Below, one piece after another: positions 3,506 to 64,000 of a DNA stretch of 64,000 nt. The notes beneath the pieces were generated by a model that was not told the DNA's origin, made no database searches, and worked only from the letters and a program-made list of their open reading frames with translations. How positions within the stretch are numbered: the first letter of the stretch is position 1; each line of letters opens with the position of its first letter. The stretch comes from a virus, in the IMG/VR virus record IMGVR_UViG_3300045988_108496, positions 1 to 64,000 of that record; one strand, 5' to 3'. A program made the position numbers and the translations under genes.

Positions 3506-3813
3506 CTTTATCTTATATCGGATTATCGGATTGAACGGATGCTCCCTATTCTCTTCATTCGATTCATTGGATGACATGAAACATCAAATGACACGAATTT
3601 CACGAACAAACAGGAATCCGTAAAAATCCGCGAAATCCGATGTAAAACACTAACTCATCCCGAAGGCCAAGGGATCGTACTCAGTGTGTCGCATGTAACC
3701 ACTCCGTAAAACGTAATTAACGGGCTCTGATGCAGACGAGCGAGACGAAGGAAAACGCTATAACCACTGCATATCTTATTTTAATTAACGGATTTATAGA
3801 CAAAGAAACAATT

Positions 3814-5219: not shown

Positions 5220-6977
5220 ATGACAACAGTTAGCAATATCAGCGAGCTCCAACAGCGTAGTGAGGAGCTCCAGTCGCAAGGCTACGAGGCCGTTCTGCCT
5301 GGCGCGTTCTGTGCGCCTAAGCAGGGAGGCAACGTGTTTTCGTGGGGCGAGTACGTTCACCAGAAACTCACGGCTTCGGCCACCATGACCGGAGCGGAAG
5401 GCAATGCGGCAAGACGGGAGATCTCCGCCGTGTTCGGTTCGTCGGGCGGCGAGAACAAAGCCAAGCCCGAAGGTGTGGGTACGCCTGGACTGGGATTTAT
5501 GGAGTGGGGCGTGGGCAACCGACTGCCCAACCTCGTGTATCTGCTTTCCAAAATGTCGCCCTTTCCGGCAGCGGGAGTGGATTTCGTGAAGAAGATTCTC
5601 GTTGGTCGCGGACCATGCGCCAAGTATCACTATACGCAGTACGTTGGTGGCAACATCACCGAGAAGTTTATCTCCTTCCCCTCGGCTGGCACCCTGCTCC
5701 GCGGACAGATAGCCGACCTCAAGGCTAAGGAAGACCAACTCTCACAATCGGATAACCAACTCTCACAATCGGATAACCAATTCTTAAAATCGGATAACCA
5801 ATTCTTAAAATCGGAGACCAATTCTGAGAGTGAAGACAGCGAAGAGATGAAGTCGCTCAAGGCAGCACTGGCAGAATGGGAACGCACCAATGAGGAGCTG
5901 CAAGAGTTTATCGAGAACAACGACCTCATGCGCACCTATCTTGAGATGGCAGGCGATATGTCGCTCATGTCGCAATGCTTCTGCGAGCTACAGCTCAACC
6001 AACGTCAGTTGGACGAGAACGGCCGACCCGTGCCCACATCACAGTGGAACCCGAAGATTGTCGGTATAAAACCTCGCTCGGTGTTCACCACCCGACTGGA
6101 GCGCATGGATAGTCAGTATCGCATCAACTATGCCTACCTCTCTAACCAGTGGCTCGACTCCACTCAGACGCTCACCGAAGCCGACCGTCGCATTGCTGCC
6201 GTGCCTTATCTCGCAGCCGACACAGCCGTCTCAGACCTCAAACGCCATGTGCGTGAGGCACGTCAGCAGCGTGTGAGCCGCAAGAACCGCCCCACACGCT
6301 TCATCATGTCTCCACGCGACTTCGGTGGTCCCTACTATGCCGATGCCCTTTGGCACAGCATCTTTGCCGGAAGCATCTTTGAGTATGCCTTCACCATTGT
6401 TGACGATCGTCTCACTCGTAAGCGCAACAGCAATATTATCGGTCGCGTGATTTACATCCATCAGGAATACCTCAAGCAGCTCTACACCCAACAGGGCGAG
6501 AACAAGAGCAAGACGATGGCACAGATACAGCAGGAGGTGTTCACAGACATCAATCGCTGGCTGTCTAATCCCGACAACGCAGGTCAGGCTCTTATCTCTG
6601 CCGTGTTCACTGGCTTGGACGGCAAGGAGCACAAGGCTTGGGAGATTGTGGAGATTGAGAGCAAAGCCAACTCGCAAGCGCAAGCCGAGAAAACCGAGCT
6701 TCAGGAAATATCATCCATCATCTTCTTTGCCATGGGTTTGGACTCGAAGCTCATCGGCAACACCCCAGGCGACGCTACATCATCGGGTGGCACCGACCTC
6801 CGCGAGCGTTTCCTCGTAAAGCAAATCCAGTTTGCCCCATTGCAGCAGCTCATGCTCCGTCCGTTGGAGGTGATAAGCAAATTCAATGGTTGGGACCCGC
6901 ACCTGGTGTGGCAGATTGACCGCGAAGTGCTCACCACACTGGATAACTCGAAAACTGGGGTGACGATGCAGGAATAG
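5220..6977 (+). CDS. portal-like protein
   Basis: 585 aa. The size and C-terminal segment (SSGGTDLRERFLVKQIQFAPLQQLMLRPLEVISKFNGW) resemble portal proteins by memory. Contains a 4 x 21-bp in-frame repeat. Not verified by search. Confidence 0.55.
   Translation: MTTVSNISELQQRSEELQSQGYEAVLPGAFCAPKQGGNVFSWGEYVHQKLTASATMTGAEGNAARREISAVFGSSGGENKAKPEGVGTPGLGFMEWGVGNRLPNLVYLLSKMSPFPAAGVDFVKKILVGRGPCAKYHYTQYVGGNITEKFISFPSAGTLLRGQIADLKAKEDQLSQSDNQLSQSDNQFLKSDNQFLKSETNSESEDSEEMKSLKAALAEWERTNEELQEFIENNDLMRTYLEMAGDMSLMSQCFCELQLNQRQLDENGRPVPTSQWNPKIVGIKPRSVFTTRLERMDSQYRINYAYLSNQWLDSTQTLTEADRRIAAVPYLAADTAVSDLKRHVREARQQRVSRKNRPTRFIMSPRDFGGPYYADALWHSIFAGSIFEYAFTIVDDRLTRKRNSNIIGRVIYIHQEYLKQLYTQQGENKSKTMAQIQQEVFTDINRWLSNPDNAGQALISAVFTGLDGKEHKAWEIVEIESKANSQAQAEKTELQEISSIIFFAMGLDSKLIGNTPGDATSSGGTDLRERFLVKQIQFAPLQQLMLRPLEVISKFNGWDPHLVWQIDREVLTTLDNSKTGVTMQE
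5735..5818 (+). repeat. 4 x 21-bp in-frame tandem repeat inside the portal-like gene
   Basis: CCAACTCTCACAATCGGATAA x2, then CCAATTCTTAAAATCGGATAA and CCAATTCTTAAAATCGGAGAC. Encodes QLSQSDN QLSQSDN QFLKSDN QFLKSET. Confidence 0.9.
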
Positions 6978-24031: not shown

Positions 24032-24370
24032 TCACTCTGCCTTAATGCTTGCGCTGATTTTTGCGCCACACGACGGGCAGACTGTCTGTATCTTAAATTC
24101 TGATGGTGCTTTTTGTGTCTTTTCGCATTCCTGCCATTGATCTTCGTCTGGGAACAACTCAGTTATCTTCACGCCTAATGCGTCGGCTATCTCATAAAGG
24201 TTGCTCAATGAAGGATTGCCGTTGATACGCGAACTCATTGTAGCTTTCGTGATTGTGCGCTGATTGTTGTCCTTGTCGGTGCGGATTATCTTGTTGGCGA
24301 GGTCGGTCAATGTAAGACCCTTCTCCTGCATGATTTCAGCTATGCGGAGATTGTTTCTCTTTCGTTCCAT
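24032..24370 (-). CDS. XRE-type HTH regulator with C-terminal CxxC
   Basis: LRIAEIMQEKGLTLTDLANKI...ATMSSRINGNPSLSNLYEIADALGVKITELF is an HTH_3 pattern. C-terminal CPSCG. Confidence 0.7.
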   Translation of the reverse strand: MERKRNNLRIAEIMQEKGLTLTDLANKIIRTDKDNNQRTITKATMSSRINGNPSLSNLYEIADALGVKITELFPDEDQWQECEKTQKAPSEFKIQTVCPSCGAKISASIKAE

Positions 24371-24527: not shown

Positions 24528-24971
24528 CTACCCTACCCCATTCTTCTCCTCGGCATATCGTGGAATGTTGGTGACGAGGAAGGCAGTGGCGCAGTTTGGG
24601 CATACCAGCACTTTGTGTGCGTCTTGTGGGGTCTGGGCGAACAGCGGACCTAAGCGTTCACGCTCGGCATACTCCTTCAGTTTTTCAAAGCTCACCTTGG
24701 GCTCTTCGATGATTGTGCCGTCTTGAGCCATGCGATAGAAGAAGTCGCGAGGGTCAACGTCTATTGCCCAGGCTATCTTGTATATGGTGGAGAGCGTAGG
24801 ATTGCCCGAAGTCATTTGCGACACGGCAGCCTTGGTCACACCCAGACGTTCTGCCACTTGCTGAGTGGTGAATCCCTTTCGGTGAACGGTCTCCATAATG
24901 TTCAGTTCCGTAACGGGAGCGTATGGCTGCACCACCTTGCGCCCATCTTTCTTTATCTCGATGTCTATCAT
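24528..24971 (-). CDS. XRE-type HTH regulator with C-terminal CxxC (paralog)
   Basis: Internal ATG at 24969-24971 (MIDIEIKK...). The longer track start would overlap the TAACTTTG promoter box. HTH FTTQQVAERLGVTKAAVSQMTSGNPTLSTIYKIAWAI. C-terminal CPNC. Confidence 0.7.
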   Translation of the reverse strand: MIDIEIKKDGRKVVQPYAPVTELNIMETVHRKGFTTQQVAERLGVTKAAVSQMTSGNPTLSTIYKIAWAIDVDPRDFFYRMAQDGTIIEEPKVSFEKLKEYAERERLGPLFAQTPQDAHKVLVCPNCATAFLVTNIPRYAEEKNGVG

Positions 24972-24998
24972 ATATAGTGTTTTGTGTTGTTTATAACG

Positions 24999-25006
24999 CA
25001 AAGTTA
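24999..25006 (-). promoter_or_regulatory. -7 box TAACTTTG for HTH gene 24528..24971
   Basis: Plus strand CAAAGTTA, embedded in the same GCAAAGTTA string as the 24420 promoter. 28 nt upstream of the ATG. Confidence 0.5.
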
Positions 25007-25346
25007 AGATATTTTGCTTTTATGCGCAGGACATTGTGCGTATTTCGTCGTTTTTGTGTAAGTTTGGTCTATTGATTAAGTGTTTTGGTATAGGTTGATG
25101 TTGTTTTAACGTACTAAACATGAGCGTTTTAATCTGTTTGTTCCCCAAAATAATCGTTGTAATTTGGGTTTTCTCGAAAGTGGCAGCACGTAGGTTGCTA
25201 CCCATAAAACCATGTAAATTTTTAAGAATTAGAGCAAAGGTGTTGTTTTGAACGGCTCAACCTCACAAGCGAGCAACCGCCGCACTGAGACCCCTTGGCT
25301 TAGTGTCGGTTAGTCAAATCTTATTATATATGCTAACGAGTATAAA

Positions 25347-25385
25347 GGGGGGGGGTGGTCTGTGGTGGTCTGTGGTGGTCGTGAA
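25347..25385 (+). repeat. G9 tract followed by a ~3 x 10-bp TGGTCTGTGG mini-array
   Basis: GGGGGGGGG, then TGGTCTGTGG TGGTCTGTGG TGGTCGTGAA, directly upstream of promoter-repeat copy 1. Confidence 0.8.
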
Positions 25386-25391
25386 TGTGCC

Positions 25392-25547
25392 TTATATATA
25401 ATAAGGTGTAATAATAAAATAATACAAAAATAAATACCTGTATGAAAAAATCCTTATTTTATTTGGCGGTGTTAGATTTTTTCCATACCTTTGCAGCAGT
25501 TAAAGAAAAAAACCAAATAGTAACAAATAAAATACTTTAAGATTATG
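25392..25547 (+). repeat. ~155-bp direct repeat copy 1 (promoter module)
   Basis: TTATATATAATAAGGTGTAATAATAAAATAATA...TACCTTTGCAGCAGTTAAAGAAA...AAGATTATG. Aligns by eye along its whole length with 26695-26849. Confidence 0.85.
25462..25493 (+). promoter_or_regulatory. promoter TTTG-N20-TACCTTTG
   Basis: -33 TTTG at 25462-25465 and -7 TACCTTTG at 25486-25493. Inside direct-repeat copy 1. Confidence 0.65.
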
Positions 25548-26315: not shown

Positions 26316-26345
26316 ACGTGCTGCGAATTTGCAGCACGTTTTTTT
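26316..26345 (+). terminator. rho-independent terminator
   Basis: ACGTGCTGC-GAATTT-GCAGCACGT followed by T7. Confidence 0.75.
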
Positions 26346-26565
26346 GTATCTCGTTGTATGGTGCTGTATGGTGCTGTATGGTGCTGTACCTCGCTGTATG
26401 GTGCTGTATCTCGCTGCATCTCGCTGCATCTCGCTGTATCTCGCTGTATGGTGCTGTATCGTGCTGTACCTCGCTGTATCGTGCTGTATCTCGCTGCATC
26501 TCGCTGTATCTCGCTGTATCGTGCTGTATCGTGCTGTATCTCGCTGTATCGTGCTGTATGGTGTC
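26346..26565 (+). repeat. 22 contiguous 10-bp units (GYAYNNYGCT)
   Basis: The units are GTATGGTGCT, GTATCTCGCT, GCATCTCGCT, GTACCTCGCT and GTATCGTGCT in mixed order. The array starts right after terminator 26316-26345. Confidence 0.95.
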
Positions 26566-26694
26566 CCCTGGTGCCCCACTCCATCACATTACACACATTA
26601 TATAATATCACAGATATTAGAGTATTTGAGGCGGTGCCCACTCATTATAGATATTATAGAGCATCACTGATATTATGTTTTTTATATTGTTTGC

Positions 26695-26849
26695 ATTATA
26701 TAATAAGGTGTAATAATAAAATAATATGAAAATAAATATTTGTATGAAAATTTTTTTATTTTATTTGGCAGTGTTAGATTATTTTCGTACCTTTGCAACA
26801 GTTAAAGAAATAAACCAAAATAGTAAAGAACAAAATACAAAAGATTATG
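26695..26849 (+). repeat. ~155-bp direct repeat copy 2 (promoter module)
   Basis: See copy 1. Similarity stops at the ATG of each downstream gene. Confidence 0.85.
26764..26795 (+). promoter_or_regulatory. promoter TTTG-N20-TACCTTTG
   Basis: -33 at 26764-26767 and -7 at 26788-26795. Inside direct-repeat copy 2. Confidence 0.65.
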
Positions 26850-35481: not shown

Positions 35482-37080
35482 ATGGCTAAAATTAAGAATT
35501 TTGAGGATTATTGCGCTTTGGTGGACGAAGTAAAGGTGCATGATTATAAGTATTTTGCACAGAACGCCCCCTCTATAAGCGACGAGGAATATGATGCTCT
35601 TTACTTCGCTTTGCAGGAATATGAAGACGCGCATCCGGATGATATACTGAAAGACTCACCTACCCAGCGGTGCTACAGCGAGAACGGCAACGGCAAGCGC
35701 ACTGTTGCGCGTCGCACGGCGTGCCTCTCGATGAAGAAGCTGCATGATGCCAAGTCGGTAGTGAAATACCTGAGAGCGCAGCAGCGCACTGCCAATATCA
35801 GCAGTCAGGGCGCGAAGGTAGATATAGAGTGGAAGTTCGACGGCGAGACCGTGAGTCTTGTGTATCGCCGCGGCTCGCTCTCGGAAGCTACCTACGGACA
35901 TGGCAAAGAGTTGTACGGCATCGACTGCCTGGAACATATAAAGCATGTTCAAGGCGTGCCTGTCCAGGTGGACGTATGGAGCCAGTACGACCGAGTGGAG
36001 GTGAGAGGTGAGGTGATCATCTCGCTTGAGGAGTTTGCCCGTTATAGCAAGGCTGGCAAATCGCCCCGTTCTACGAGTAACGGCATCATGGCGAAGAAAG
36101 TGGCTGTAAAGGACGAGTGCAAGCGTCTGGAGTTTCATCCCTTCCGCCTCATTATGGACGGCGTGATAAGACACACGGCTGCTATGCAGGCTCTTGAGCG
36201 TAATGGCTTTAAGACTTCGGGCTTCGTGTCGGCTCTCAATCTTGAGAAAACGGATGCCGAACTGGAGCAGGACATTGAGAACATCGTGTGCTCTGCCGAG
36301 GTGGAGCGTGAGTCGCTGCCCTACCCTACCGACGGTCTTGTGTTCAAGTTCGACAACTACGACTATTACGACCGTATAGGACAGACCGATCATGACGCAA
36401 AGTATAATTGCGCTTTTAAGTTTCGACCGGTGTTTAAGGCCGTAACCACATATCGCGGATACCATACTACGGTAGGCGAAAAGACTGGCAAGGTGACGTA
36501 TGTAGCCGACTTTGACGAGGTGGAAATGAACGGACACCGTTTCGCCCATGCCAACTGCGGAAGCGAGCGCACGTTCCTCCAGAAAGACCTTGTGGCAGGT
36601 TGCAAGATAGAGGTCAGCTTGCACGGCGATGTTATCGTGTGTGTGGATAGAAAGATTGAAGACGAACCGGCTATTGATGAGAACCTTATCATTGAGGAAA
36701 AGCCTATCATTGAGGAAGAATCTATTGCTATTGACGAGGAGCCTCTTGTTATAGACGAATCGGGATTTGTTCATCATCCGGAGCCTCACGTTATAGAGCC
36801 GGATATTTATCAGGATCGGGAGCCGGAAGCAGAGTCGGAGCCTATACCTCAGCTGAAGCCGAAACGTAAGCGTAATTATCCGCAGGTAGGCGAGCCGACG
36901 CTACGAGAGGAACGTGAAGACACGTCGGCAAGGAGAAAGGATGGCAAACTGAGCGTAAAGAAGGTATTCGCCGGTGCGCTTGCTGTACTCATGTCAGCGT
37001 CAATGTTCGTAGTTGTGGTAGCATTCGCCGGAGCCGCCCTATTCTTTCTGCCGATGATGGGAGATGTTGCAAAGAAGTGA
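35482..37080 (+). CDS. ligA: NAD-dependent DNA ligase (adenylation + OB core) with acidic linker and C-terminal TM helix
   Basis: HDYKYFAQNAPSISDEEYDALY...HPDDILKDSPTQR matches the LigA domain Ia/N-terminus. KxDG motif EWKFDGETVSLVY. C-terminal VFAGALAVLMSASMFVVVVAFAGAALFFLPMMG. Confidence 0.85.
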   Translation: MAKIKNFEDYCALVDEVKVHDYKYFAQNAPSISDEEYDALYFALQEYEDAHPDDILKDSPTQRCYSENGNGKRTVARRTACLSMKKLHDAKSVVKYLRAQQRTANISSQGAKVDIEWKFDGETVSLVYRRGSLSEATYGHGKELYGIDCLEHIKHVQGVPVQVDVWSQYDRVEVRGEVIISLEEFARYSKAGKSPRSTSNGIMAKKVAVKDECKRLEFHPFRLIMDGVIRHTAAMQALERNGFKTSGFVSALNLEKTDAELEQDIENIVCSAEVERESLPYPTDGLVFKFDNYDYYDRIGQTDHDAKYNCAFKFRPVFKAVTTYRGYHTTVGEKTGKVTYVADFDEVEMNGHRFAHANCGSERTFLQKDLVAGCKIEVSLHGDVIVCVDRKIEDEPAIDENLIIEEKPIIEEESIAIDEEPLVIDESGFVHHPEPHVIEPDIYQDREPEAESEPIPQLKPKRKRNYPQVGEPTLREEREDTSARRKDGKLSVKKVFAGALAVLMSASMFVVVVAFAGAALFFLPMMGDVAKK

Positions 37081-37345
37081 GTTATGTTTTTGTGGAAATG
37101 TGGAAATGTGGAAGTACAGAAATACATAAATACACATTTTCACAAAAACATAAAACAATAAACACACAAACACATCCATACACAAACGCACACACACATA
37201 AATACATATATACATATATACATATATACATGAATAAACAAAGCAACTAACAAATTAATCAACTAACAAAGCAATACACACACAAATACACTTATAAATA
37301 AATTAAGCAATAAATAAATAAACAAATAAATAAACAAATAAATGT
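37081..37345 (+). repeat. G-poor A/C-rich patchwork of microsatellites between ligA and parA
   Basis: GTGGAAAT x3 (37092-37115). ACATATAT x3 (about 37204-37230). CAACTAACAAA x2. AAATAAATAAACAA x2. Inverted repeat GTTATGTTTTTGTG / CACAAAAACATAAAAC. Confidence 0.8.
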
Positions 37346-37354
37346 GCATGGATA

Positions 37355-37386
37355 TTTGTTTATTTCAATTATAATTCTTAAATTTG
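37355..37386 (+). promoter_or_regulatory. promoter TTTG-N20-TAAATTTG upstream of parA
   Basis: -33 at 37355-37358 and -7 at 37379-37386. The TTCTTAAATTTGCAAC string is identical to that at 43349-43364. Confidence 0.65.
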
Positions 37387-37459
37387 CAACGTATTACAGA
37401 TTATACGTGTTCTGTATATTTGAATAGTATCATCAATTTTAAAATATACTTTATAGAAG

Positions 37460-38326
37460 ATGGAAAGACTTAGAGAAGTGCTTGCCTTTGTAAACCACAA
37501 AGGCGGTGTAGGAAAAACAACAACGGTGCAGAGTTTAGCGACCGGATTGCGCCGTTTTGGTAAAGGAAAATTCGGAGTGGATGCCGATGGACGCAAACGC
37601 TTGCCGCGTGTGCTCATTATCGACCTTGACCCGCAGGCGTGTGCCTCGTTCCTCTTCGGATGGAGCGAGACTCAGAACGCAGGTAAGCCTACCGTTTACG
37701 ACGCATTGGTACAGCAAAGCAATTTGCCCGTTTATCAGGTACGTGAGGGAATTTACCTCGCGCCAGCTGCGTCGCAGCTTATATCCATAGAACCGTTTCT
37801 GAATCAGCGGGCATTGCCTCGCAAAGCCCTTTGTAAATTGCTCGCCAAGCCACTGAACGAGTTAGCAGGCACCGAACTGGCAGACGGAGGCGTGAACACC
37901 GTTATGGATGCTTTCGACTACGTGCTTATAGACTGCCCACCGGCTATGTCGTTGCTTACATACAATGCTCTCACAGCCGCTACGAGTGTAGTGCTGCCCG
38001 TGCAGCTCGAAGTGTTGGCAACAAAAGGTATTGCCGAAATCATCAACGCCATCGAGGAAACACGTGAGGATCTTAATCCCGATCTTGACATTCGTGGCTT
38101 GCTGATGGTAATGAGCAACGACCAGACCAACGCCACAAAGGAGTTTAAGGCATATCTCGGCGAAAAGTATCAGGACTATATGTTTGACGCTTATACGCGC
38201 CGCGACACGAAGATGGTCGAAGCGCAAGCTATGCGAGAAGACATCTTTGCTTATGCACCGTATTGCAGGGTAGGGCAGGACTATGAGCGTTTTACCAAGG
38301 AGATAATCAACAGTTTCACTTTTTAA
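37460..38326 (+). CDS. parA: ParA/Soj-type partition ATPase
   Basis: Deviant Walker A FVNHKGGVGKTTT. IIDLDPQ motif. Typical size of 288 aa. Confidence 0.9.
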   Translation: MERLREVLAFVNHKGGVGKTTTVQSLATGLRRFGKGKFGVDADGRKRLPRVLIIDLDPQACASFLFGWSETQNAGKPTVYDALVQQSNLPVYQVREGIYLAPAASQLISIEPFLNQRALPRKALCKLLAKPLNELAGTELADGGVNTVMDAFDYVLIDCPPAMSLLTYNALTAATSVVLPVQLEVLATKGIAEIINAIEETREDLNPDLDIRGLLMVMSNDQTNATKEFKAYLGEKYQDYMFDAYTRRDTKMVEAQAMREDIFAYAPYCRVGQDYERFTKEIINSFTF

Positions 38327-38337
38327 TATTATAGGGT

Positions 38338-38793
38338 ATGGCAAGAGAAATGAAGAAACGAGTTGCGCATTTTGGTCTGGAAAATTCAGACGCTATAGAC
38401 GAGAACGAGCGCATTTTGGAAGCAGGTAGACAGCAGCGTCAGGAGAACAGGGAGAAAAAGGGAAGTGGAGAAGCGGCAGCGAATACTGTCACTGCTTCGT
38501 CCGCAGAAGTTCCGGCGACTGAAAAGCCGACTGTTTCTACAACAACGTCTGAGACCGAGACATCGACAACTATAACTCCTGTAGCAGATCAACCGGCAAC
38601 CACATCATTCAGCAACGATATTGCTGCGAACATGCGTAAGCCGAAGGGTAAGAAGACCGAGAATGGCATCACCATATACGTGCCGATGGAGTATTACGAG
38701 CGTATCGCCTTGATGAAAATGCGCACTGGCGTGCCTATCAAGGATTTGGCGCTACAGGCTGTGATTGAGTTTTTGGACAGAAACAAAATGTAA
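38338..38793 (+). CDS. ribbon-helix-helix partner protein (ParG/omega-like centromere-binding candidate)
   Basis: Disordered N-terminal two-thirds. C-terminal ITIYVPMEYYERIALMKMRTGVPIKDLALQAVIEFLDRN fits a strand-helix-helix. Lies 11 nt after parA. Confidence 0.6.
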   Translation: MAREMKKRVAHFGLENSDAIDENERILEAGRQQRQENREKKGSGEAAANTVTASSAEVPATEKPTVSTTTSETETSTTITPVADQPATTSFSNDIAANMRKPKGKKTENGITIYVPMEYYERIALMKMRTGVPIKDLALQAVIEFLDRNKM

Positions 38794-38947
38794 AATCTAA
38801 AGTCTGATGTACACCGATATGGACAACTTTGAAAAATGCGAGGCGATATTCAACGAGGACTTGTAATATGTAAGGTAAAATCCTACTAAAGTTTTTTACC
38901 TTAAAGTTTACGAAGTCACTACAAAAGTGTGCTGTTTTTGGTTTGTA

Positions 38948-39034
38948 ATACCTACGGATTTGTTTACCAATACCTACGGATTTGTTTACTTAAACCTACG
39001 GATTTGTTTACCAACTCCTGCGTTTTTGTTTACC
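38948..39034 (+). repeat. 4 direct iterons, 22-bp period
   Basis: ATACCTACGGATTTGTTTACC (38948), ATACCTACGGATTTGTTTAC (38970), AAACCTACGGATTTGTTTACC (38992) and the degenerate ACTCCTGCGTTTTTGTTTACC (39014). Confidence 0.9.
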
Positions 39035-39197
39035 TCACTGTAGGTAACTGATTGATAATCAATACGCTCAAAAACCTTAATATAATATAATTATAAACTA
39101 TGGATTTTTCGTTTTGAAAGAATAAAAGAATAGTTTATGTTACATTATATTAAGGGAAATTGGAGGAGTTGAAAATCAACGAGTTAGAGCATACGAA

Positions 39198-39283
39198 GTA
39201 AACAAATATATAGGAGTTGGTAAACAAAAACGTAGGTTTTGATACATAAAAACGTAGGTTTAAGTACATAAAAACGTAGGTTA
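39198..39283 (-). repeat. 4 iterons in inverted orientation, ~22-bp period
   Basis: GTAAACAAATATATAGGAGTT, GTAAACAAAAACGTAGGTTT, ATACATAAAAACGTAGGTTT, GTACATAAAAACGTAGGTTA. The last overlaps the rep ATG at 39283. Confidence 0.9.
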
Positions 39284-40875
39284 TGGCAAAGAAAGCGAAA
39301 AAAGAAGACAATGAAGGCAAACTTCAACATGCCTTGAACGAATTGCGCTGGATAAACACACCTGTCAACTATACATCATACGCTAAAAGCTATTCTCTCA
39401 TACAACAGGACGTTATGCTGTTGGTAAGCGGACGACTGCAAGACCATTTTGCCAAGTTTCTTAACGAACATCGTTATTTAAGCAAGGAACGACCCAATGG
39501 AGGTATAACGAAAGAAGACCTGTTGAAGATGGGACCGATACGTTTGCGCCTGGCTGACTTCGGTATAGACAGCAGCCATTATGACGAGTCGGTAAAGGTG
39601 ATAAACCAAATGAAGAAGATAGAGTTTCATTTACCGCGTTTCGATCCAGAGACAGGACTTAGAAAAGGTGAGGACTATATGCCTATATTCAGCAAGATAT
39701 TTATCCCGAAGAACTTCACATCACGAGAAGGAGAAGATTTCAACTATTCGGGAGACGGAGAAACAAAGATAGACGAGGACGGACAGGAAGTGCGCAAGTT
39801 CCGTCGTGACGGATATATCGAGGTTACAATAAACATTGAGGTGGCAAAAGCCGTGTTTGATATGGCAGACGGATATTTCAATCATCTTGAACGTATCGCC
39901 TATTTCTGCAATTCGGCTTACACGTCACGTCTTTATCTTCTGTTGATGAAGTACGCGAGCAGGGGGCAGATGCACCCTGCTATAGATTATCGTGAGCTGA
40001 AGGAAGCATTGGGTATGTTTAAGGTCGATGTGGAAAAAAGTGAACAACCCGCAAAGGTTGTCACTACTGAGAAATATCAAAAGTTCTCACAGTTCCGCAA
40101 ACAGGTGTTGGACGTGGCACGTGGTGACATGGAGCGACTGTGCGAGGAAAACAAGATAGAGATAATGCTATCGTGCATTGACCCCAACAAAAAAGGCTAT
40201 GAACCTATTTATAGGGGTAGCGTCAAACGAGGCAATCCTGAAAAAATCAAGTTTCATATTAAGCGCACACCGTTGGGCTTGGCGAGAGAATTGGAGTTGC
40301 ATCGTGGTTCGTCAGAAAAACGTTTGTGCGCCAAGTTAATGTCATTATATCCTACGCTCGACGAAGAACGGCTCAAGGCGTTTGTTGCTGACGTTCCCGA
40401 AGACCTTTGGAACGACTTTAAGGCGTATGCCTATAATGGAGTGCCGAAAGCGGTAGAGCAACCGCATAGATGGAATGGCACGGTGGAGGATTTCGTGTTT
40501 TACATTATGGAGCAATGGATAAAACAGCATAGTGTGAAGCATGAAGCCCAGCAGCAGACGTTTGCGTTTGTCGAAGCGGAGGAAGTGAAGCCGAAACCGG
40601 GCGAAAAGGAGTGGCAGAATCTTTTGACCATGCTTGACGGTGAAACAGGCGAGTGGCTGGGTAGTGAGATGTCGGACTTGTTGAAAAAAGTGATGCTTGA
40701 TGATTATGACGGCAAGACTGTCCGGATTATTGCGACTCAGGAGCAGGTGACAGCCATAGAGAATCTATTGGAGAGCAATGTACTACAAGGTAAGTTTAGC
40801 CAATTACTTGGCTATTGCTTTAAGGGCAATAAACGTAAAAAGGTCTGTTTGGATTATAAAAAACTTAACAAATAG
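39283..40875 (+). CDS. replication initiator (Rep, iteron-binding type)
   Basis: 530 aa. The ATG lies inside the last of 8 iterons. SYSLIQQDVMLLVS recalls the Rep_3-type N-terminus. The call rests mainly on iteron context. Confidence 0.65.
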   Translation: MAKKAKKEDNEGKLQHALNELRWINTPVNYTSYAKSYSLIQQDVMLLVSGRLQDHFAKFLNEHRYLSKERPNGGITKEDLLKMGPIRLRLADFGIDSSHYDESVKVINQMKKIEFHLPRFDPETGLRKGEDYMPIFSKIFIPKNFTSREGEDFNYSGDGETKIDEDGQEVRKFRRDGYIEVTINIEVAKAVFDMADGYFNHLERIAYFCNSAYTSRLYLLLMKYASRGQMHPAIDYRELKEALGMFKVDVEKSEQPAKVVTTEKYQKFSQFRKQVLDVARGDMERLCEENKIEIMLSCIDPNKKGYEPIYRGSVKRGNPEKIKFHIKRTPLGLARELELHRGSSEKRLCAKLMSLYPTLDEERLKAFVADVPEDLWNDFKAYAYNGVPKAVEQPHRWNGTVEDFVFYIMEQWIKQHSVKHEAQQQTFAFVEAEEVKPKPGEKEWQNLLTMLDGETGEWLGSEMSDLLKKVMLDDYDGKTVRIIATQEQVTAIENLLESNVLQGKFSQLLGYCFKGNKRKKVCLDYKKLNK

Positions 40876-40880
40876 TTTCA

Positions 40881-40918
40881 CACCGCTTACCCATTCCCAA
40901 AGGTAGGCGGTGTTTTTT
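40881..40918 (+). terminator. rho-independent terminator after rep
   Basis: CACCGCTTACC / GGTAGGCGGTG stem followed by T6. Confidence 0.75.
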
Positions 40919-42569: not shown

Positions 42570-43256
42570 TCAGTCTTGTGTAGGACGGTCGGCAACCATA
42601 TAACCATCATCCATGCTCATATTTTTGTAGCTTTTTGCTTCGTTGAGCATACGAGTGAGATTAGCGATTTGCTTTTGTTGTTCTGCAATCACATCGAGCA
42701 GACGTGCGCGTTCCTCGCTATGACGCTCTTCGCTCTTCATGCGTTTAGCTTCGAGGTCGAGCAGTGCTTTCATATTTTGGTCGCTAACATTGCCTACTAC
42801 GATCATCTCTCCTTGCCCCGTATCGTGCGTCTGGACACATATAGAGGAGGGATTGTCCGTACCGCTGCACTCTTTTTTATCAGAATCAACAATTCCTGGT
42901 ACGACGGACGGAATTAGCTGCACGTCTAACGGGTCGAGAAGCGCACGACTGCCAGCTTTACGCTCTGTAACATAGCCGCCGTCAGGAGCGAATATGTCAC
43001 CTTCTTGTGGTTGTACGTACATTGAGTTTCCCGTTGGGTCGCTATCTTTGTCGTAAAAGAAAGCTGAGATAGGCACTTGAAAGGTGTTACAGAAGCGTAG
43101 AATGCTTGATACTGGCATGGGACATCTGCCTTGCTCCCATAGACGCAGACTGTTGTTAGATGTTGATCCGATGGCTTGCAGGATGGTGTTGATGTTTATC
43201 CTGCCGTTGGCCTCCATCCATCTGTTGAGAAACGAATAATTGTATTGGTACTTCAT
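42570..43256 (-). CDS. XRE-like HTH protein with C-terminal coiled coil (repressor candidate)
   Basis: ATG at 43254-43256; the track start at 43280 is GTG. NINTILQAIGSTSNNSLRLWEQGRCPMPVSSILRFCNTFQVPISAFF. Divergent from the gene at 43386. Confidence 0.55.
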   Translation of the reverse strand: MKYQYNYSFLNRWMEANGRININTILQAIGSTSNNSLRLWEQGRCPMPVSSILRFCNTFQVPISAFFYDKDSDPTGNSMYVQPQEGDIFAPDGGYVTERKAGSRALLDPLDVQLIPSVVPGIVDSDKKECSGTDNPSSICVQTHDTGQGEMIVVGNVSDQNMKALLDLEAKRMKSEERHSEERARLLDVIAEQQKQIANLTRMLNEAKSYKNMSMDDGYMVADRPTQD

Positions 43257-43328
43257 AACTGAATTATTTAAAAATGACACTTAAATCGTTAAAAAAGATA
43301 AATACTGAAAAATAAAAGTAGCTAAGCT

Positions 43329-50224: not shown

Positions 50225-50278
50225 TTCAAAATGCGCAACGCGCATAATTCAAAACTCAAATTTCAAAATTCAAAACTT
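50224..50278 (+). repeat. hairpin + heptad element (copy d)
   Basis: AATTCAAAA, then ATGCGC-AAC-GCGCAT, then AATTCAAAACTCAAATTTCAAAATTCAAAACTT, ending at ATG 50279. Confidence 0.7.
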
Positions 50279-51469
50279 ATGAAGTTACAAGCCCTATCAT
50301 CCAAAGCCCTGCACGCTGCCCTTAACAAGTCGGCAAAGTGTATCGGCTCTAAAAATCCCATTGCCATTTTCGACAATGTGCTGCTGACCTGCAACGAAAG
50401 CGGTCTGTTCTTTCTTACGTCATCTACAGCAGAAGCACAGCTCACCATCCCGGCGCCCATTTCGTTGTGCGGTGGCAAGTTTGATAAGCCGATAGTGCTA
50501 CCTATAAAGATGCTCAGTTCGCTGTTAGGCACACTGCCCGACTGCGTTGTCACTCTTGATATAGAGGAGGGTGGATCGTCGTTCACTGTAGAGTATTGCA
50601 CCGGCAGTGGCGACAACGTTAAGTCGGGCAAGGCTAAAATGGCTTATTTCTCGGGCAACGAATACCCTCAGATGCTATTGCCCAAGAGTGAGGCTTCAAC
50701 AATTATTTGCCTGCCTTTTCAGTTGTTCCATTCTGTTATAGATACTGCTGATAAGTTTGTTCAGATAGACGAACTTCGCCCCCAGCTTTCCAGCTTGTGT
50801 GTAGACATTGCCGACGACCGCTCAGAGGTGGTCTTTGCGGCTACGAACGGACATACGCTTGCAAAGATAGTACACAGCAATGATCCGCAGAAGGGTGGCA
50901 GTGATTTCTTCCGTAGTGGCGAGCCTCGCAAGACGCTTATCCACCGCAATTACTTCCGCACGTTGTCAGCCTTTGACGGATGCGAGGAGATCAGCATCGA
51001 GAACGACGGAAACACCATCCGTTTTTCGTCGGGCGACATCGAACTTATTTGCAAGCACATGGAGGGCAAATACCCTAACTACAGCGGCGTAATTCCGAAG
51101 TCCAACCCCTACTTCGTCGTATTTGACAAGAAGGAAATGACTGACATCCTGCGCCGTGTCAGTCTGTTCTCAAGTAGCGCAAGCAATCTTGTAAAGGTAG
51201 AGAAGAACGGCATTTTCATCAACGTTTCTGCGAGTAACATGGATTTTGCTTTGTCCGGCGAAGACCAGGTGCTCATATCTAACGCAGAGTGCCCCGACAA
51301 TTTCCGCATCGGATTGAAGTCGTCGGCTTTTCAGACCTGTATCAACTCCATTCCGTCGGACACCATACGAATGCAGTTGCTTGACGCTTCGCACGCCGTA
51401 GTGCTCACCGCTGACACACCTGCGCCTAAAGTGATGACGCTTGTGATGCCGATGCTGCTTGACGATTAA
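50279..51469 (+). CDS. dnaN: DNA polymerase III beta sliding clamp
   Basis: ATG 50279 (MKLQALSSKALHAALNKSAKCIGSKNPIAIFDNVLL...TSSTAEAQL). DnaN N-terminal pattern and a size of 396 aa. Confidence 0.8.
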   Translation: MKLQALSSKALHAALNKSAKCIGSKNPIAIFDNVLLTCNESGLFFLTSSTAEAQLTIPAPISLCGGKFDKPIVLPIKMLSSLLGTLPDCVVTLDIEEGGSSFTVEYCTGSGDNVKSGKAKMAYFSGNEYPQMLLPKSEASTIICLPFQLFHSVIDTADKFVQIDELRPQLSSLCVDIADDRSEVVFAATNGHTLAKIVHSNDPQKGGSDFFRSGEPRKTLIHRNYFRTLSAFDGCEEISIENDGNTIRFSSGDIELICKHMEGKYPNYSGVIPKSNPYFVVFDKKEMTDILRRVSLFSSSASNLVKVEKNGIFINVSASNMDFALSGEDQVLISNAECPDNFRIGLKSSAFQTCINSIPSDTIRMQLLDASHAVVLTADTPAPKVMTLVMPMLLDD

Positions 51470-57515: not shown

Positions 57516-58430
57516 TTATAATGTCAAGTCAATACCAAACTCTCTTTCCAAAAACTCCTTCCAGTCCGGTTTCCCGAACAGCGAAACGTTAGCCTTCTTC
57601 CAGTCCTTTTCGCGAGGGAAAAACACGTCACGCGTAAACCATTCGTACACGTTGTCGTAGCGTTGGCGAACCTTTGCGTCGGGATGATTGTCCCAAAAGC
57701 GTTGTCCGGCACGCAGGTAGGCTCGTGCCATACGCGGATATTCCTTGAAGTAGAGGATGCGCTTGCGCTCTGTGGCGAGTGGGCAACACATACAGCCGAG
57801 ACGTTTCGACACGTCGATTTGCCCCCCCCGATTGGTGTAATAGACTGGAGCGAGTGTCAGATGTCGGTCTTCGACGAAAGCCAACACATCATCGTCCGTC
57901 CAATCGAGAATAGGGTAAATGGCTTCCACATGATTGTCCTCCGTCTTGCGACCGTAAAAACGGCATTCCGTAGGTTCGTTGTATCGCTCATTGCGCTTCG
58001 AGCTCTCCGACTTCCTTATGCCCATGATGCACTTATCTGTAACCTTGTATTCCTTCAACTTCTCGCAACAGAATCGTGAGAAACGGTTAGGGAACCCCTT
58101 TTTCGTTACAAGTTGAAAGAACGTTTCCTTGGGTCTGAGTATTTCGGCACCCATACGCCCCACATGGGCAATCGTACCTGGAGGATCAATCGTAGTGTTG
58201 CGATAAATGGCACGATAGCGGACACCCGCTTCCTTAGCCAGTTGCAGAATCACGTCAGAGTCTTTGCCGCCCGAATACGCCACCTCTATCTCATCGTCGT
58301 ATCCATTCTGTATGCCTTGAAGCAGACGGATGGCACGGTCTATTTTCTTTTGTAAATCCTCTGTTATCATATCGTTGTTTTTGTTACTTATTTTACCCAT
58401 ACCATCAATGGTTTTTATCCAACCCATCAA
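57516..58430 (-). CDS. PAPS-reductase / PP-loop ATPase family protein
   Basis: PP-loop VAYSGGKDSDV. The start is uncertain (alternative ATG at 58370). G8 tract on the coding strand at 57822-57829. Confidence 0.8.
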   Translation of the reverse strand: MMGWIKTIDGMGKISNKNNDMITEDLQKKIDRAIRLLQGIQNGYDDEIEVAYSGGKDSDVILQLAKEAGVRYRAIYRNTTIDPPGTIAHVGRMGAEILRPKETFFQLVTKKGFPNRFSRFCCEKLKEYKVTDKCIMGIRKSESSKRNERYNEPTECRFYGRKTEDNHVEAIYPILDWTDDDVLAFVEDRHLTLAPVYYTNRGGQIDVSKRLGCMCCPLATERKRILYFKEYPRMARAYLRAGQRFWDNHPDAKVRQRYDNVYEWFTRDVFFPREKDWKKANVSLFGKPDWKEFLEREFGIDLTL

Positions 58431-61699: not shown

Positions 61700-64000
61700 T
61701 ATGGCAAATTTGAAGACCGAAGTAATCCTTACGATGAACGGCAAGGCTGCTATTCAGGTGCTCGAAGCCCTGAGAGATAAAGCCAAATCAGTGAGAGAGG
61801 AAATAGACCATCTCGACGAGAAAGCCCCCGATTTCAAGCAGCGCAAAGCCGGGCTGGAAGAAGTGTATAAGGCTTTGCAGTCAGCTGAAACGGATGTTAT
61901 AAAAGGCACGGAGCGACTGGACCATGCCCTTCAGAATCTTACATCAACATCACTCCAAAACCTCCGCAAGGCTTTGGGTGACGGTCGTCGTCAGTTGCAA
62001 AGTCTATCAGAAGATGAGCTGAAGGAAAACGAGGAAATACGCAAGAAAATGAAGCAGGTGGGCGACCAGGTCCGCTTGCTTGAAGGTCAGTATGTCAAGA
62101 TTCCCGATGGATTAAAGAATATAAAGAACCAGTCAGACCAATGGCTCGACAAGGCCATCAAGCAACAGCGCGACCTCGTAGGCTCATTGGAAAAATCGGA
62201 TGCGTCGTATCAGCAGAATCTCGCCACATTGAAGCAGCTGGAAGCCGAGGAGGATAGACGCAAGGGCAAGATGAGCGTGTTGAAGGCACATCAGACTGTG
62301 AGCAACGATAATGCTTCGGCATCTGATTTGCGCCGAGCCAAGACTACGCTTACTGAGGCCCGCGACAATACACCTACAAAATTTTCTTATACTATTGGCG
62401 ATTATAATCGTGAGCTCCAGGAGATAGAGAAGCGATTGGAGGCCGTGTCGGGCAAGACTCAGAAAGCATCAATGAGCTGGAAGCAGATGAAGCAAGTGTT
62501 GGCTGAACCCAACAAGGCTTCGGGCGAAGATATAAAGCGCACGATGGAAGTGATACAGCAGAAGATACAGCAGCTTCCTGCTGGCAGCAAGTATGTAGCC
62601 GACCTCCGTCGCCAATACTCCATGCTCGAACAGACTCTCAAGGGCACTCGTATGTCGCAGAGTGCCCTCAACGACATTCTCGCTCGTAGCAAGCAGGGTA
62701 AGGCTTCCCTCGACGAACTGCGCCGTGCTTACAAGCAACTCGAAGAGGAACTAAACCAAATCAACACCAAGAGCAAGGAGTTTGCCGATAAGCAGAAGTC
62801 GATGAAGGAGCTGAAGAAGAACATCGACGAGGTGACGGGCGCAGCCAACAAGCAGAGTGGGGCATGGCATACAGCACTGAAGAACCTCACGGCATACGTT
62901 GGATTGTTTGCAGCGTTCAACAAGGCGAAAGAACTTGTGACGGGTGCCATTAAGAAGAATTTGGAGTATTCAGGTTCGTTGACCGACATCCGTAAGGTCA
63001 GCGGTCTGACTATGGAGGAAGTTAAAAAACTCTCTACTGAGTTGGCCAAAATAGACACCAGAACATCCGTTGATGGACTGGCACAGCTCGCCTATGAGGC
63101 ATCTAAACTTGGCGTAGGAAAGTACGGAGTGGAAGGCATGACCCAATTTGTCAGAGCCGCCGATAAAATTAACGTAGCGATCGGCGAGGAAATGGGAGAA
63201 AAAGCCCTCCCATCATTGCTGAAGATGACGGAAGTAATGGGACTTATCCCCAAAATGGGACTCGAAAGATCCATTGAAGCTGTAGGTTCTTCTATGTTTA
63301 AGTTGGCTTCTACATCTACTGCCACGAGCAGTGACATTACTGAGTTTGCAAAGCGATGTACGGGTGTGGCACGAACCGCCGGCATAACAACCGATCAGTT
63401 GCTCGCCCTTGGTAGTGCGTTCAGTGCGCAGATGGCTTCGCCCGAAGTTGCAGCTACTGCCATGTCTAAGTTTATTGTGGCGTTGCAGAAGAACCATAAC
63501 TTGATAGAAAAAGACCTTGCTATTCCTGCCGGAACAATCAACAGCATGTACCAGGCAGGTAACGCTATGGATGCTATTGTCCTCATTCTTGAGAAGATGA
63601 AAGAGAAGGGCAACATGAATGCCCTTGGCGAAATCTTCAAGGACGTAGGAGGTGATGGTCAGCGTCTTATTTCTTCGATGGTTACTATGGCTAAGAATGT
63701 GGATATGTTGAAAGACCATCTCTACGAATCGCAGGAAGCCTTTGAGGAAGCTACAGCCGTAGGTAAAGAATACTCGATGCAGCAGCAGAGTGCCATCGGT
63801 ATTCTCGAAAGAGCTAACAACCTTTGGGAAAAGGCGTTTGTCAATCCTGACGGTGTAGACGCTGTAAAGGGTATGGCGGAATGGTGGTATGAGATGTCGG
63901 CAACGATGACAAGCAGTCCGTTACTGAAAGGCACATTGCTTGTTTCTCTTCAGATGGTTCTTATAGCATTGAAAGCCGTAGCGTCCCTTTTGCCGGTAAT
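61700..64000 (+). CDS. tail tape measure protein (3' end outside window)
   Basis: Frame open for 767 codons from ATG 61700 to the window edge, and not in the track. Long coiled-coil N-terminus, then a TP901-type TMP core (GSLTDIRKVSGLT...LAYEASKLGV...ITEFAKRCTGVARTAGI). Confidence 0.8.

Follow-up and report, generated by a model that had tools for sequence, protein, structure and literature searches.

Organization of the maintenance block

The window analysed here is a 64,000-nt stretch, IMG/VR record IMGVR_UViG_3300045988_108496, and represents about three quarters of a tailed phage genome of approximately 86 kb. It contains a compact block, recognized by motifs, profile matches and repeats, in which a partition ATPase gene, a partner ORF, an iteron origin and a rep gene follow one another (Table 1), as the original prediction had proposed. 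The promoter that had been placed upstream of parA can be read directly from the sequence; the left end of the block, set at 37,355, has to be moved to 37,091 to take in a probable centromere array that had been missed.

Table 1. Coordinates of the maintenance block and of the XRE-type regulators in the window
Feature	Position	Strand	Description
XRE-type regulator 1	24032-24370	-	solid
XRE-type regulator 2	24528-25001	-	solid
Candidate partition centromere/operator	37091-37346	.	tandem array of 32 perfectly in-register 8-nt units (TACATAAA consensus); plus strand A/C-rich
par operon promoter (Bacteroidota-type)	37355-37386	+	-33 TTTG (37355-37358); -7 TAAATTTG (37379-37386); putative function
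parA	37460-38326	+	288 aa; deviant Walker-A partition ATPase, no N-terminal HTH extension; Pfam and PHROG matches
Partner ORF	38338-38793	+	151 aa; putative centromere-binding adaptor (ParG-like); AlphaFold2, family alignment, covariation
Relics left of the origin	38803-38932	.	3' end of a gene that this locus lacks and one iteron of another class (38873-38902); one class-N1 iteron (38911-38932)
Left iteron array	38947-39034	-	4 x 22 nt; minus-strand core GTAAACAAATCCGTAGG; TRF score 120, 84% matches
AT-rich spacer	39035-39197	.	73% AT (52.8% for the window)
Right iteron array	39198-39285	+	4 x 22 nt, inverted relative to the left array; final copy overlapping the rep ATG
rep	39283-40875	+	530 aa; Rep_3 (RepE/pi) superfamily iteron initiator; C-terminal extension of ~200 aa
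XRE-type regulator 3	42570-43280		weakly supported (phrog_8, 0.0056)

Replication initiator and origin

The Rep protein has two winged-helix domains (WH1-WH2) of the Rep_3/RepE-pi type. Although its own match to Pfam Rep3_N is sub-threshold (0.0047; 17.7 bits vs 22.4 needed), PF01051 and PF21205 are present in homologs that are 40-47% identical, and the family profile matches the R6K pi protein (2nra, 2.2e-5). The top Foldseek match of the Rep model is RepE (2z9o, probability 0.99), with a TM score that is low owing to domain placement. The gene belongs to the replication module, with the ligase gene on one side and the primase-helicase gene on the other, and Pfam and domain searches recognized no second initiator in the window; Rep may be the only initiator of the phage. 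Origins composed of iterons and an initiator also serve lytic replication, as in the lambdoid O/ori system, and Rep by itself is therefore no proof of a plasmid state.

Of the ten GTAAACAAANNCGTAGG matches in the window, eight fall in the two iteron arrays, with 1.75 matches expected by chance and a count of ten reached in none of 100 shuffles. The inverted two-array layout is common to all Rep classes of the family. The spacer is likely the origin unwinding region, a role suggested by its composition; a search allowing up to one mismatch found no DnaA box within it. The overlap of the last right iteron with the rep start codon implies that Rep may regulate its own expression. To the left of the origin, positions 38803-38902 are 100% identical to 4147-4249 of a related locus (L160), and the whole relic region apparently consists of remnants of earlier replicon swaps.

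Partition genes and the 8-nt repeat array

ParA has a deviant Walker A motif, NHKGGVGKTT (KGGVGKT at residues 13-19), and matches Pfam AAA_31 (5.7e-37, from residue 6 on) and CbiA (1.3e-13), PHROG 164 'ParA-like partition protein' (5e-46) and, under the cut-off, NCBIfam ParA_partition (4e-19). Its promoter is conserved in nearly all relatives, and TTCTTAAATTTG[CT]AAC is kept upstream of parA across most ParA classes.

The putative adaptor encoded by the partner ORF has no match in Pfam, PHROGs, NCBIfam or PDB sequences. Its AlphaFold2 model comprises N-terminal helices, a disordered linker rich in S/T/E/P (residues 45-95), and an extended segment followed by two helices (residues 108-149; pLDDT 77-86). 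Foldseek returned no significant fold match for this model (best E-value 2.8), and an RHH-like C-terminus is only suggested by the predicted fold.

Upstream of the promoter, the array of 8-nt units gives a lag-8 autocorrelation of 0.67, compared with 0.38 +/- 0.026 in 2000 shuffles, and its windows yield the top lag-8 values of the entire 64 kb. A comparable array is present in every relative. This array is the probable partition centromere/operator.

Complete genome, host and gene content

The genome map could be closed at about 86-89 kb, with contigs of 85,999 to 88,759 bp having differing breakpoints, one of them within the ligase gene that the window spans. These complete contigs are circularly permuted; in metagenomic contigs, a plasmid prophage is indistinguishable from replicating or packaged phage DNA. 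The 22 kb beyond the window were rebuilt from related contigs rather than from the same molecule, and encode a tape measure protein, a PriCT_2 protein, ThyX, MazG, a head protease, a LysR-like protein, RtcB and YopX. The virion, packaging and lysis set includes TerL (30% identical to annotated terminases), a head maturation protease (phrog_53, 6.5e-29), a tape measure protein of 2264 aa carrying PF10145, tail proteins, tail fibres and a holin carrying PF05105. The portal and major capsid genes received no name from any library searched, and approximately half of the ORFs are without a family match.

The original prediction had seen no recombinase motif in the window, and Pfam searches together with precomputed Pfam tables likewise found the window free of tyrosine recombinase, serine recombinase and DDE domains. 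The same holds for integrase, recombinase and transposase domains in the rebuilt 22 kb, as read from related contigs, and no att site was found, with the proviso that a highly divergent integrase could go unrecognized among the many unannotated ORFs. Of the three XRE-type regulators originally reported, two stand and the third is doubtful (Table 1). Neither a clear CI-type repressor with a cleavage domain nor any toxin-antitoxin module or multimer-resolution recombinase was recognized.

Exact copies of four window proteins occur in up to 309 collection blocks, where the longest contigs never exceed 200 kb and none shows bacterial flanks; all IMG/VR relatives are 111 kb or shorter. The phage is a common human-gut phage linked to Prevotella/Segatella, and its contigs have repeatedly been binned with Prevotella MAGs. 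No cultured lysogen or carrier was found, the single isolate match (Prevotella sp. MGM1) being distant and poorly syntenic. PLSDB contains no close relative of the phage backbone, and INPHARED yielded no DNA match and no Rep match, with TerL matching just a few unrelated phages.

Covariation of three specificity pairs

Every one of the 62 related IMG/VR loci whose flanks are long enough has ParA and Rep between the ligase and the primase-helicase. Given this fixed syntenic position, the possibility that the block is an inserted foreign element, which the original prediction had raised against itself, is rejected.

On this constant background, three pairs of elements co-vary and reassort independently of one another. 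The Rep N-terminus falls into eight classes, and the iteron sequence changes along with the class (63 loci): a class-specific iteron was found for the seven Rep classes examined, and the eighth (N4) has only GTTTTTTAC repeats resembling those of N2. The C-terminal ~45 aa of the adaptor (strand-helix-helix) track the repeat array, the strand motif GIT[IV]YVPM occurring with the A/C-rich array in 20 of 20 loci and other motifs with other arrays in 18 of 18, so that array type matches adaptor C-terminal class in 38 of 38. The N-terminal ~40 aa of the adaptor, in turn, track the ParA class, including in natural hybrids such as L104, L123 and L120.

Comparison with known systems

The closest annotated relatives of the phage ParA, Rep and iterons are found on bona fide plasmids of Segatella copri and S. 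hominis. ParA is 40% identical to that of S. copri DSM 18205 plasmid unnamed2 (NZ_CP085934.1), and Rep is 28-32% identical to the 'RepB family plasmid replication initiator' of Segatella plasmids (tblastn). Plasmid unnamed2 has the same order of parA, small ORF, 22-nt iterons and Rep_3-type rep, as do the related plasmids NZ_CP137558.1 and NZ_CP137560.1, and its strongest 8-nt periodicity likewise lies upstream of parA. The iteron cores are alike (GTAAAtAgAAAtGTgGTTTT against GTAAACAAAAACGTAGGTTTT), but the plasmids have one direct array of seven copies (22 nt, GGTAAATAGAAATGTGGTTTTA in unnamed2) instead of two facing arrays. The plasmids further differ in carrying metabolic genes and no phage genes, in a Rep about 100-120 aa shorter, and in a small ORF of 99 aa whose product does not align significantly with the phage adaptor.

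The partition systems ParF-ParG-parH of TP228 and delta-omega of pSM19035 each combine a small Walker-type ATPase with a small RHH dimer, which activates the enzyme through its flexible N-terminal tail. Upstream lies the centromere/operator, made of tightly spaced short repeats, namely 4-bp boxes at 8-bp spacing (parH) or heptads (omega). The phage block resembles this type Ib arrangement in its deviant Walker-A ATPase without an N-terminal DNA-binding domain and in the short-repeat array beside the operon, to which binding is predicted. However, its array is much longer than the parH and omega sites (32 units, 256 bp), its ParA is larger than the TP228 and pSM19035 ATPases (288 aa, the Walker A motif being followed by an insertion), and its adaptor shows no sequence similarity to any solved RHH protein.

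Among phages, P1, P7, N15 and SSU5 of Enterobacteria and the parABS-carrying cluster A mycobacteriophages are tailed, lack an integrase for lysogeny, and combine a plasmid replicon with ParA-type partition, as is generally known (see also PMC7969092). P1 and P7 also resemble the present family in that closely related members have different partition and replication specificities (PMC7969092). No sequence relationship to the backbones of these phages was detected. All of these phages have hosts of other phyla. P1 and N15 rely on type Ia ParA/SopA and an HTH-type ParB, whereas a small ParA and a small putative RHH adaptor (type Ib-like) occur here, and N15 is linear with a protelomerase, which was not seen in this phage.

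Within Bacteroidota, a precedent for a phage-plasmid is crAssphage (Carjivirus communis; PMC10983915). This abundant gut phage is without an integrase and is proposed to persist extrachromosomally on the basis of culture, Hi-C data and replication-gene matches, and is noted as a singleton in PMC7969092 (PMC10983915; PMC7969092). It belongs to an unrelated podovirus-like lineage, for which the accessible text describes no ParA/adaptor/centromere/iteron-Rep cassette of this kind. The 'Flandersviridae' are similar to this phage in genome size (85-95 kb), infect Bacteroidota and are often recovered as closed contigs from whole-community gut metagenomes, with an extrachromosomal state having been speculated; they are defined by a PolA and DnaG replication module and have no partition genes (PMC8008677). 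Assignment of the phage to this group was rejected, as no PolA or DnaG domain was found and partition genes are present.

Proposed lifestyle and alternatives

The genome combines virion, packaging and lysis genes with a complete plasmid-type replication and partition cassette (ParA, adaptor, repeat array, iterons and Rep), and no integration module was found. These features point to an extrachromosomal prophage, or phage-plasmid, that would persist as a low-copy circular plasmid instead of integrating, a reading to which we assign a probability of roughly 75% and which agrees with the extrachromosomal lysogenic lifestyle originally put forward. We infer the episomal state of the prophage from sequence, and likewise its copy number, autoregulation and the binding to DNA. 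In the proposed mechanism, Rep would bind the two facing sets of 22-bp iterons and melt the AT-rich spacer to start theta replication, after which the primase-helicase and clamp encoded by the phage would probably take over, while its binding to the iteron over its own start codon would limit Rep synthesis. The C-terminal strand-helix-helix domain of the adaptor would coat the 32-unit array of 8-bp repeats upstream of parA, which is proposed to double as an operator because it overlaps or abuts the par promoter. The N-terminal tail of the adaptor would stimulate ParA, ParA would move the copies apart ahead of cell division, and XRE-type repressors would hold the lytic genes off.

The most serious alternative is a virulent phage, or one with a carrier state only, in which Rep and the iterons form a lytic origin, replicating genomes in the infected cell are positioned or regulated by ParA and the adaptor, and no heritable prophage exists. 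Such a phage would fit the location of Rep inside the replication module, from ligase to primase-helicase, where no other initiator was recognized, as well as the lack of a cultured lysogen and of a PLSDB record. Swapping of origin specificity is known in both lytic and temperate lambdoid phages. In addition, crAss-like phages persist in Bacteroidota without classical lysogeny (PMC10983915). However, ParA, the adaptor and the 256-bp array are kept in 62 of 62 loci while their specificity has diversified, and both observations are difficult to account for unless the element is passed on when cells divide. All three parts have their nearest relatives on stable Segatella plasmids, repressor-type regulators are present, and the contigs are repeatedly binned with Prevotella MAGs; this alternative is considered unlikely.

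Less probable still is an ordinary integrating temperate phage with par and rep as accessory genes and an integrase too divergent to recognize. Room for such an enzyme is left by the ORFs without a family match and by an outer 22 kb read from related contigs, but the sensitive models PF00589, PF00239, PF07508 and DDE gave no match over the whole map, none of the up to 309 collection blocks contains a contig above 200 kb or bacterial flanks, and the complete contigs are circularly permuted. An equally slim chance is given to a plasmid with captured defective or GTA-like phage genes that no longer makes infectious particles. Its plasmid-type replicon and partition genes, near those of Segatella plasmids, and the unnamed portal and major capsid would suit this origin; against it, a full-length packaging, head, tail and lysis set is conserved at high identity in metagenomes numbering in the hundreds and in over 100 IMG/VR viral contigs. 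Such conservation implies purifying selection on virion function.

Beyond the phage-plasmid reading, a further, more tentative possibility is that this globally common family of Prevotella/Segatella gut phages consists of low-copy plasmids with a combinatorial 'incompatibility code' whose three modules are swapped independently by recombination on a near-identical backbone. One module would pair the winged-helix domain of Rep with the iterons (8 types or more), a second the DNA-binding domain of the adaptor with the 8-bp centromere (4 or more), and a third ParA with the N-terminal tail of the adaptor (4 or more).

Implications

Prevotella/Segatella is a dominant, health-associated gut genus whose phages are largely uncultured, with lifestyles that are mostly guessed. 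The phage-plasmid lifestyle itself is already known in other bacteria. If a prevalent family of 86-110 kb is indeed maintained as plasmids in this host, integrase-based lifestyle predictors would misclassify its members as 'virulent'. For genetic tools in the hard-to-manipulate Segatella, the block would also offer a ready replicon and partition cassette that is adapted to the host and comes in several compatible specificities, and the natural reassortment of Rep/iteron and adaptor/centromere/ParA combinations provides a clean comparative data set on how partition and replication specificity is encoded. Should the proposed code be correct, the relic iterons at 38803-38932 would be scars of module swaps, and related phage-plasmids could share one cell or displace each other. 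Plasmid maintenance, if true, could explain the long-term coexistence of these phages with their hosts.

Organization of the Partition and Replication Block

The original prediction placed a ParA gene, a partner gene, iterons, and a rep gene within 37355-40918 of this phage DNA, and all of these contents are present. Its left boundary, however, overlooked an array in which 32 8-nt units follow one another in perfect register (consensus TACATAAA; 73% A or C on the + strand), and which runs from the ligase stop codon to the par promoter. The lag-8 autocorrelation of this array is 0.67, compared with 0.38 ± 0.026 in shuffled sequences, and its 160-nt windows are the most 8-periodic of the whole 64 kb. 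A Bacteroidota-type promoter follows the array. Considering its position, its periodicity, and the comparative data, the array likely serves the partition system as centromere and operator, so that the block should start at 37091.

ParA carries a deviant Walker A motif (KGGVGKT) and matches Pfam AAA_31 (5.7e-37) and the PHROG 'ParA-like partition protein' (5e-46). The gene for the adaptor, a putative centromere-binding protein, starts 11 nt downstream of the ParA gene. Its product has no family match in Pfam, PHROGs, NCBIfam, or PDB sequences, and a PDB profile search and Foldseek returned nothing significant. The AlphaFold2 model consists of N-terminal helices, a disordered linker, and an extended segment with two helices, an arrangement that would fit in outline a scheme with a DNA-binding C-terminus and a ParA-binding N-terminus; the ribbon-helix-helix assignment is tentative.

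The 489-nt gap between the adaptor and rep genes (69% AT) contains two sets of iterons separated by a 163-nt spacer (73% AT). The iteron core has 10 matches in the window, 8 of them at the origin, where 1.75 would be expected by chance. The final iteron extends over the start codon of rep, and no DnaA box with at most one mismatch was found in the origin. Rep by itself grazes the Pfam Rep3_N profile under the cut-off (E 0.0047), and NCBIfam RepM likewise. PF01051 and PF21205 are nevertheless present in Rep homologs at 40-47% identity, the family profile matches the R6K pi protein (2nra; E 2.2e-5), and in fold the AlphaFold2 model (pLDDT 71.6) comes closest to plasmid F RepE (2z9o; probability 0.99). 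Based on these domain, profile, and fold matches, Rep is treated as a putative Rep_3-superfamily iteron initiator. It exceeds the usual length of Rep_3 proteins by ~100-200 aa, with the extra part (~200 aa) at the C-terminus. Part of the model matches DnaA domain I in Foldseek (4tps_D; probability 0.99, 88 columns), a match that hints at a helicase-recruiting domain.

Features of the window and of the remaining 22 kb of the genome map
Feature	Position	Strand	Details
SPFH/Band 7 protein	3730-4677	+	
21-nt tandem repeat	5734-5815		ACCAACTCTCAAAATCGGATA x 3.9, 95% matches; within 585-aa ORF 5220-6977
XRE-type regulator	24032-24370	-	solid
XRE-type regulator	24528-25001	-	solid
G-run and repeat	25346-25380		G-run, then GGTGGTCTGT x 2.7
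Promoter-like leaders	25395-25545; 26690-26848		~150 nt, near-identical
10-nt array	26345-26563		21 head-to-tail copies of TGTATC[TG][CG]GC
NAD-dependent ligase	35482-37080	+	
8-nt array	37091-37346		32 units
par promoter	37355; 37379		TTTG; TAAATTTG
ParA	37460-38326		
Adaptor	38338-38793		151 aa
Lone class-N1 iteron copy	38911-38932		
Left iterons	38947-39034		4 x 22 nt
Right iterons	39198-39285		4 x 22 nt, opposite orientation to left set
Rep	39283-40875		530 aa
XRE-type regulator	42570-43280		weak
DnaN clamp, phage-encoded	50231-51469	+	
PAPS reductase-like	57516-58430	-	
Tape measure	outside window		2264 aa; PF10145
PriCT_2/BT4734-like protein	outside window		
Guanylate kinase, ThyX, MazG	outside window		
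Three unannotated proteins	outside window		
Head protease	outside window		S49/phrog_53
430-aa protein	outside window		probably capsid
LysR-like protein (LysR-type regulator), RtcB, YopX	outside window		

Covariation of Specificity Determinants

By its N-terminal (winged-helix) part, Rep sorts into eight classes among 63 loci, and a class-specific iteron was recovered for seven of them (e.g., GTAAACAAAAACGTAGG, AAAACAGCACACTTTTGTAGTG, TTAGTAAATAGG, GGTACATAAATAGGGAAC, and GGTCATAATGTTTTTTACC). For class N4, the single locus inspected contains N2-like GTTTTTTAC repeats, and no distinct N4 iteron was established. In the loci studied in detail, facing iteron sets surround an AT-rich spacer. Rep may belong to a different class despite 99% identity to the window in primase, ParA, and ligase (e.g., the related locus L160), and its C-terminal part reassorts apart from the N-terminal DNA-binding part.

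The array upstream of parA is predicted by the C-terminal strand motif of the adaptor: GIT[IV]YVPM occurs with A/C-rich ACAAATAA-type arrays (20/20 loci), and GIVV[ND]VP, SVKVTIP, and GINAFVP with TACGT- or TAGAT-type arrays (18/18 loci). At its N-terminus, the adaptor tracks the ParA class over ~40 residues, the class being defined by identity to the window ParA (at least 91%, 75-80%, or 44-46%). Natural hybrids (L104, L123, and L120) prove this link: their ParA and adaptor N-terminus are of the window type, whereas the adaptor C-terminal domain is foreign and the array is the foreign one that matches it. Such co-variation would be predicted from binding of Rep to the iterons, of the adaptor C-terminus to the array, and of its N-terminus to ParA.

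Traces of other replicons lie at the left border of the origin. The stretch 38803-38902 is 100% identical to part of L160, where it takes in the 3' terminus of an additional lipoprotein-like gene and the opening iteron of a different Rep class. This small gene (L160 3657-4213), which in some relatives separates the adaptor gene from the origin, encodes a product with a lipoprotein-type signal peptide (MNKIISVLFVLCLCMAASAQQ...); the window retains only its last ~60 nt. Together with the lone class-N1 iteron, the relics in 38803-38932 resemble scars left by one replicon exchange after another.

Conservation and Genome Context

The order of ligase, ParA, adaptor, Rep, and p198 is invariant in 42 of 42 Rep-anchored IMG/VR loci. 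When the neighboring 1222-aa primase-helicase was used as a second anchor, independent of Rep similarity, ParA and Rep were both present in all 62 loci with enough upstream sequence, while the 14 loci without both were all cut by a contig end. The idea that the block is an inserted foreign element, which the original prediction had raised against itself, was rejected on this fixed gene order in both sets of loci. A close relative on a Prevotella MAG contig (CAAGPV010000014.1, 94,511 bp; TerL 94%) has an altered gene order downstream of TerL, with homologs of the window's 0.2-2.7 kb genes located there, and the phage family is therefore not strictly collinear.

Many metagenome contigs encode proteins identical to those of the window. 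On five contigs, 85,999 to 88,759 bp long, the genes are the same but the end points differ; one of the five, of 86,280 bp, breaks off inside the ligase gene, which is uninterrupted in the window. These permuted ends yield a closed map of ~86-89 kb, providing the full genome whose recovery had been proposed, and indicate that the underlying molecule is circular or terminally redundant. The 22 kb beyond the window were read from related contigs (L009, L015, and L005). Neither the window nor these 22 kb, precomputed Pfam tables included, yielded a domain of a tyrosine recombinase, a serine recombinase, or a DDE transposase, which extends the earlier claim of a missing integrase to the rest of the map. 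The window proteins tested have exact copies in up to 309 collection blocks, with the longest contig never exceeding 200 kb, and IMG/VR relatives are all at most 111 kb.

That the element is a phage follows from a TerL with 30% identity to annotated terminases and from genes for a head protease, tail proteins, a tape measure, and a holin. 'Flandersviridae', which contain PolA and DnaG and lack partition genes (PMC8008677), were considered and rejected as its identity. TerL and the primase-helicase have no match among PDB sequences, and tRNA and Rfam scans of the window found nothing. Since no DNA polymerase was recognised, the phage probably replicates with host Pol III and its own clamp. Two of the three predicted XRE-type regulators are solid, whereas the third is weak. 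The 10-nt array, flanked by the two leaders and with the G-run nearby, could serve to bind a regulator, to package DNA, or to initiate replication as a second origin. ORF 63213-63719(-), whose exact protein is not on record, lies antisense within the tape-measure gene and is probably not a gene.

Plasmid Relatives and Host

A tblastn search with Rep found no match among 50,697 GenBank phage records, nor did a nucleotide search with the block among INPHARED phages; the best ParA matches in phage databases (at most 34%) fall below the plasmid relative. The proposed homology searches instead led to Segatella plasmids: in PLSDB, Rep is 28-32% identical to 'RepB family plasmid replication initiator' proteins of Segatella hominis and S. 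copri plasmids. Plasmid unnamed2 of S. copri DSM 18205, a 59-kb replicon with metabolic genes, shares the layout of the phage, with ParA (40% identical), a 99-aa ORF, seven 22-nt iterons (GGTAAATAGAAATGTGGTTTTA, similar in core to the phage iterons), and Rep; pairwise comparison of the adaptor with the 99-aa ORF was not significant. The strongest 8-nt periodicity of this plasmid (0.51 vs 0.36 ± 0.03) also lies directly upstream of parA (L096 3893-4052), and an 8-bp repeat centromere may accordingly be general to this Prevotellaceae partition family. By sequence, the replicon and partition system of the phage are of the type used by its host's own plasmids. Given these plasmid relatives, the binning of phage contigs mostly into Prevotella MAGs, and the recorded adaptor source name 'Prevotella sp.', the host is very probably Prevotella/Segatella.

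In PLSDB searches with the phage backbone, the primase had no match and TerL only a distant one, in a 37.7-kb 'plasmid' of Fulvitalea axinellae (NZ_AP025327.1, 3516-4316; 28% identity, E 9e-20), which may be another Bacteroidota phage-plasmid candidate. Contig204 of the cultured isolate Prevotella sp. MGM1 (NZ_BEWV01000204.1, 90,283 bp) was rejected as a cultured carrier, with TerL only 51% identical, flanks not syntenic, and only three proteins shared across the 22 kb covered; the isolate may carry a distant relative.

Lifestyle and Significance

The best explanation is maintenance of the phage as a low-copy plasmid prophage, a reading given a probability of about 0.75 and based on the conserved replicon and full partition system, their diversified specificity, the lack of integration machinery, and the XRE-type regulators. 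The replicon and the full active-partition system are kept in every relative with enough flank, and their specificity has diversified in the manner that plasmid incompatibility selects for. A non-lysogenic phage, in which Rep and the iterons serve only as a lytic origin and the ParA system performs intracellular positioning, would explain Rep; yet this reading leaves a 256-bp centromere-like array with a co-evolving adaptor and ATPase poorly explained, and is considered improbable. An integrase hidden in the phage is very unlikely, as no recombinase domain was recognised across the whole map and no longest contig exceeds 200 kb. Equally slight is the chance of a defective phage-like plasmid, given the packaging, head, tail, and lysis genes.

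Phage-plasmids are well established, including P1, N15, SSU5, and others. The original prediction asked if phage-plasmids are on record in Bacteroidota hosts, and crAssphage provides a partial yes: one survey considers phage-plasmids probably under-counted in Bacteroides-type hosts and flags crAssphage as a singleton (PMC7969092), and crAssphage has since been argued to be a phage-plasmid (PMC10983915). Within an incomplete coverage of literature pairing phage-plasmids with Prevotella or Segatella, no account of this family or cassette was found. The phage-plasmid kind itself is ordinary; the interest of the present family lies in its host clade, its prevalence, and its clean three-way modular covariation.
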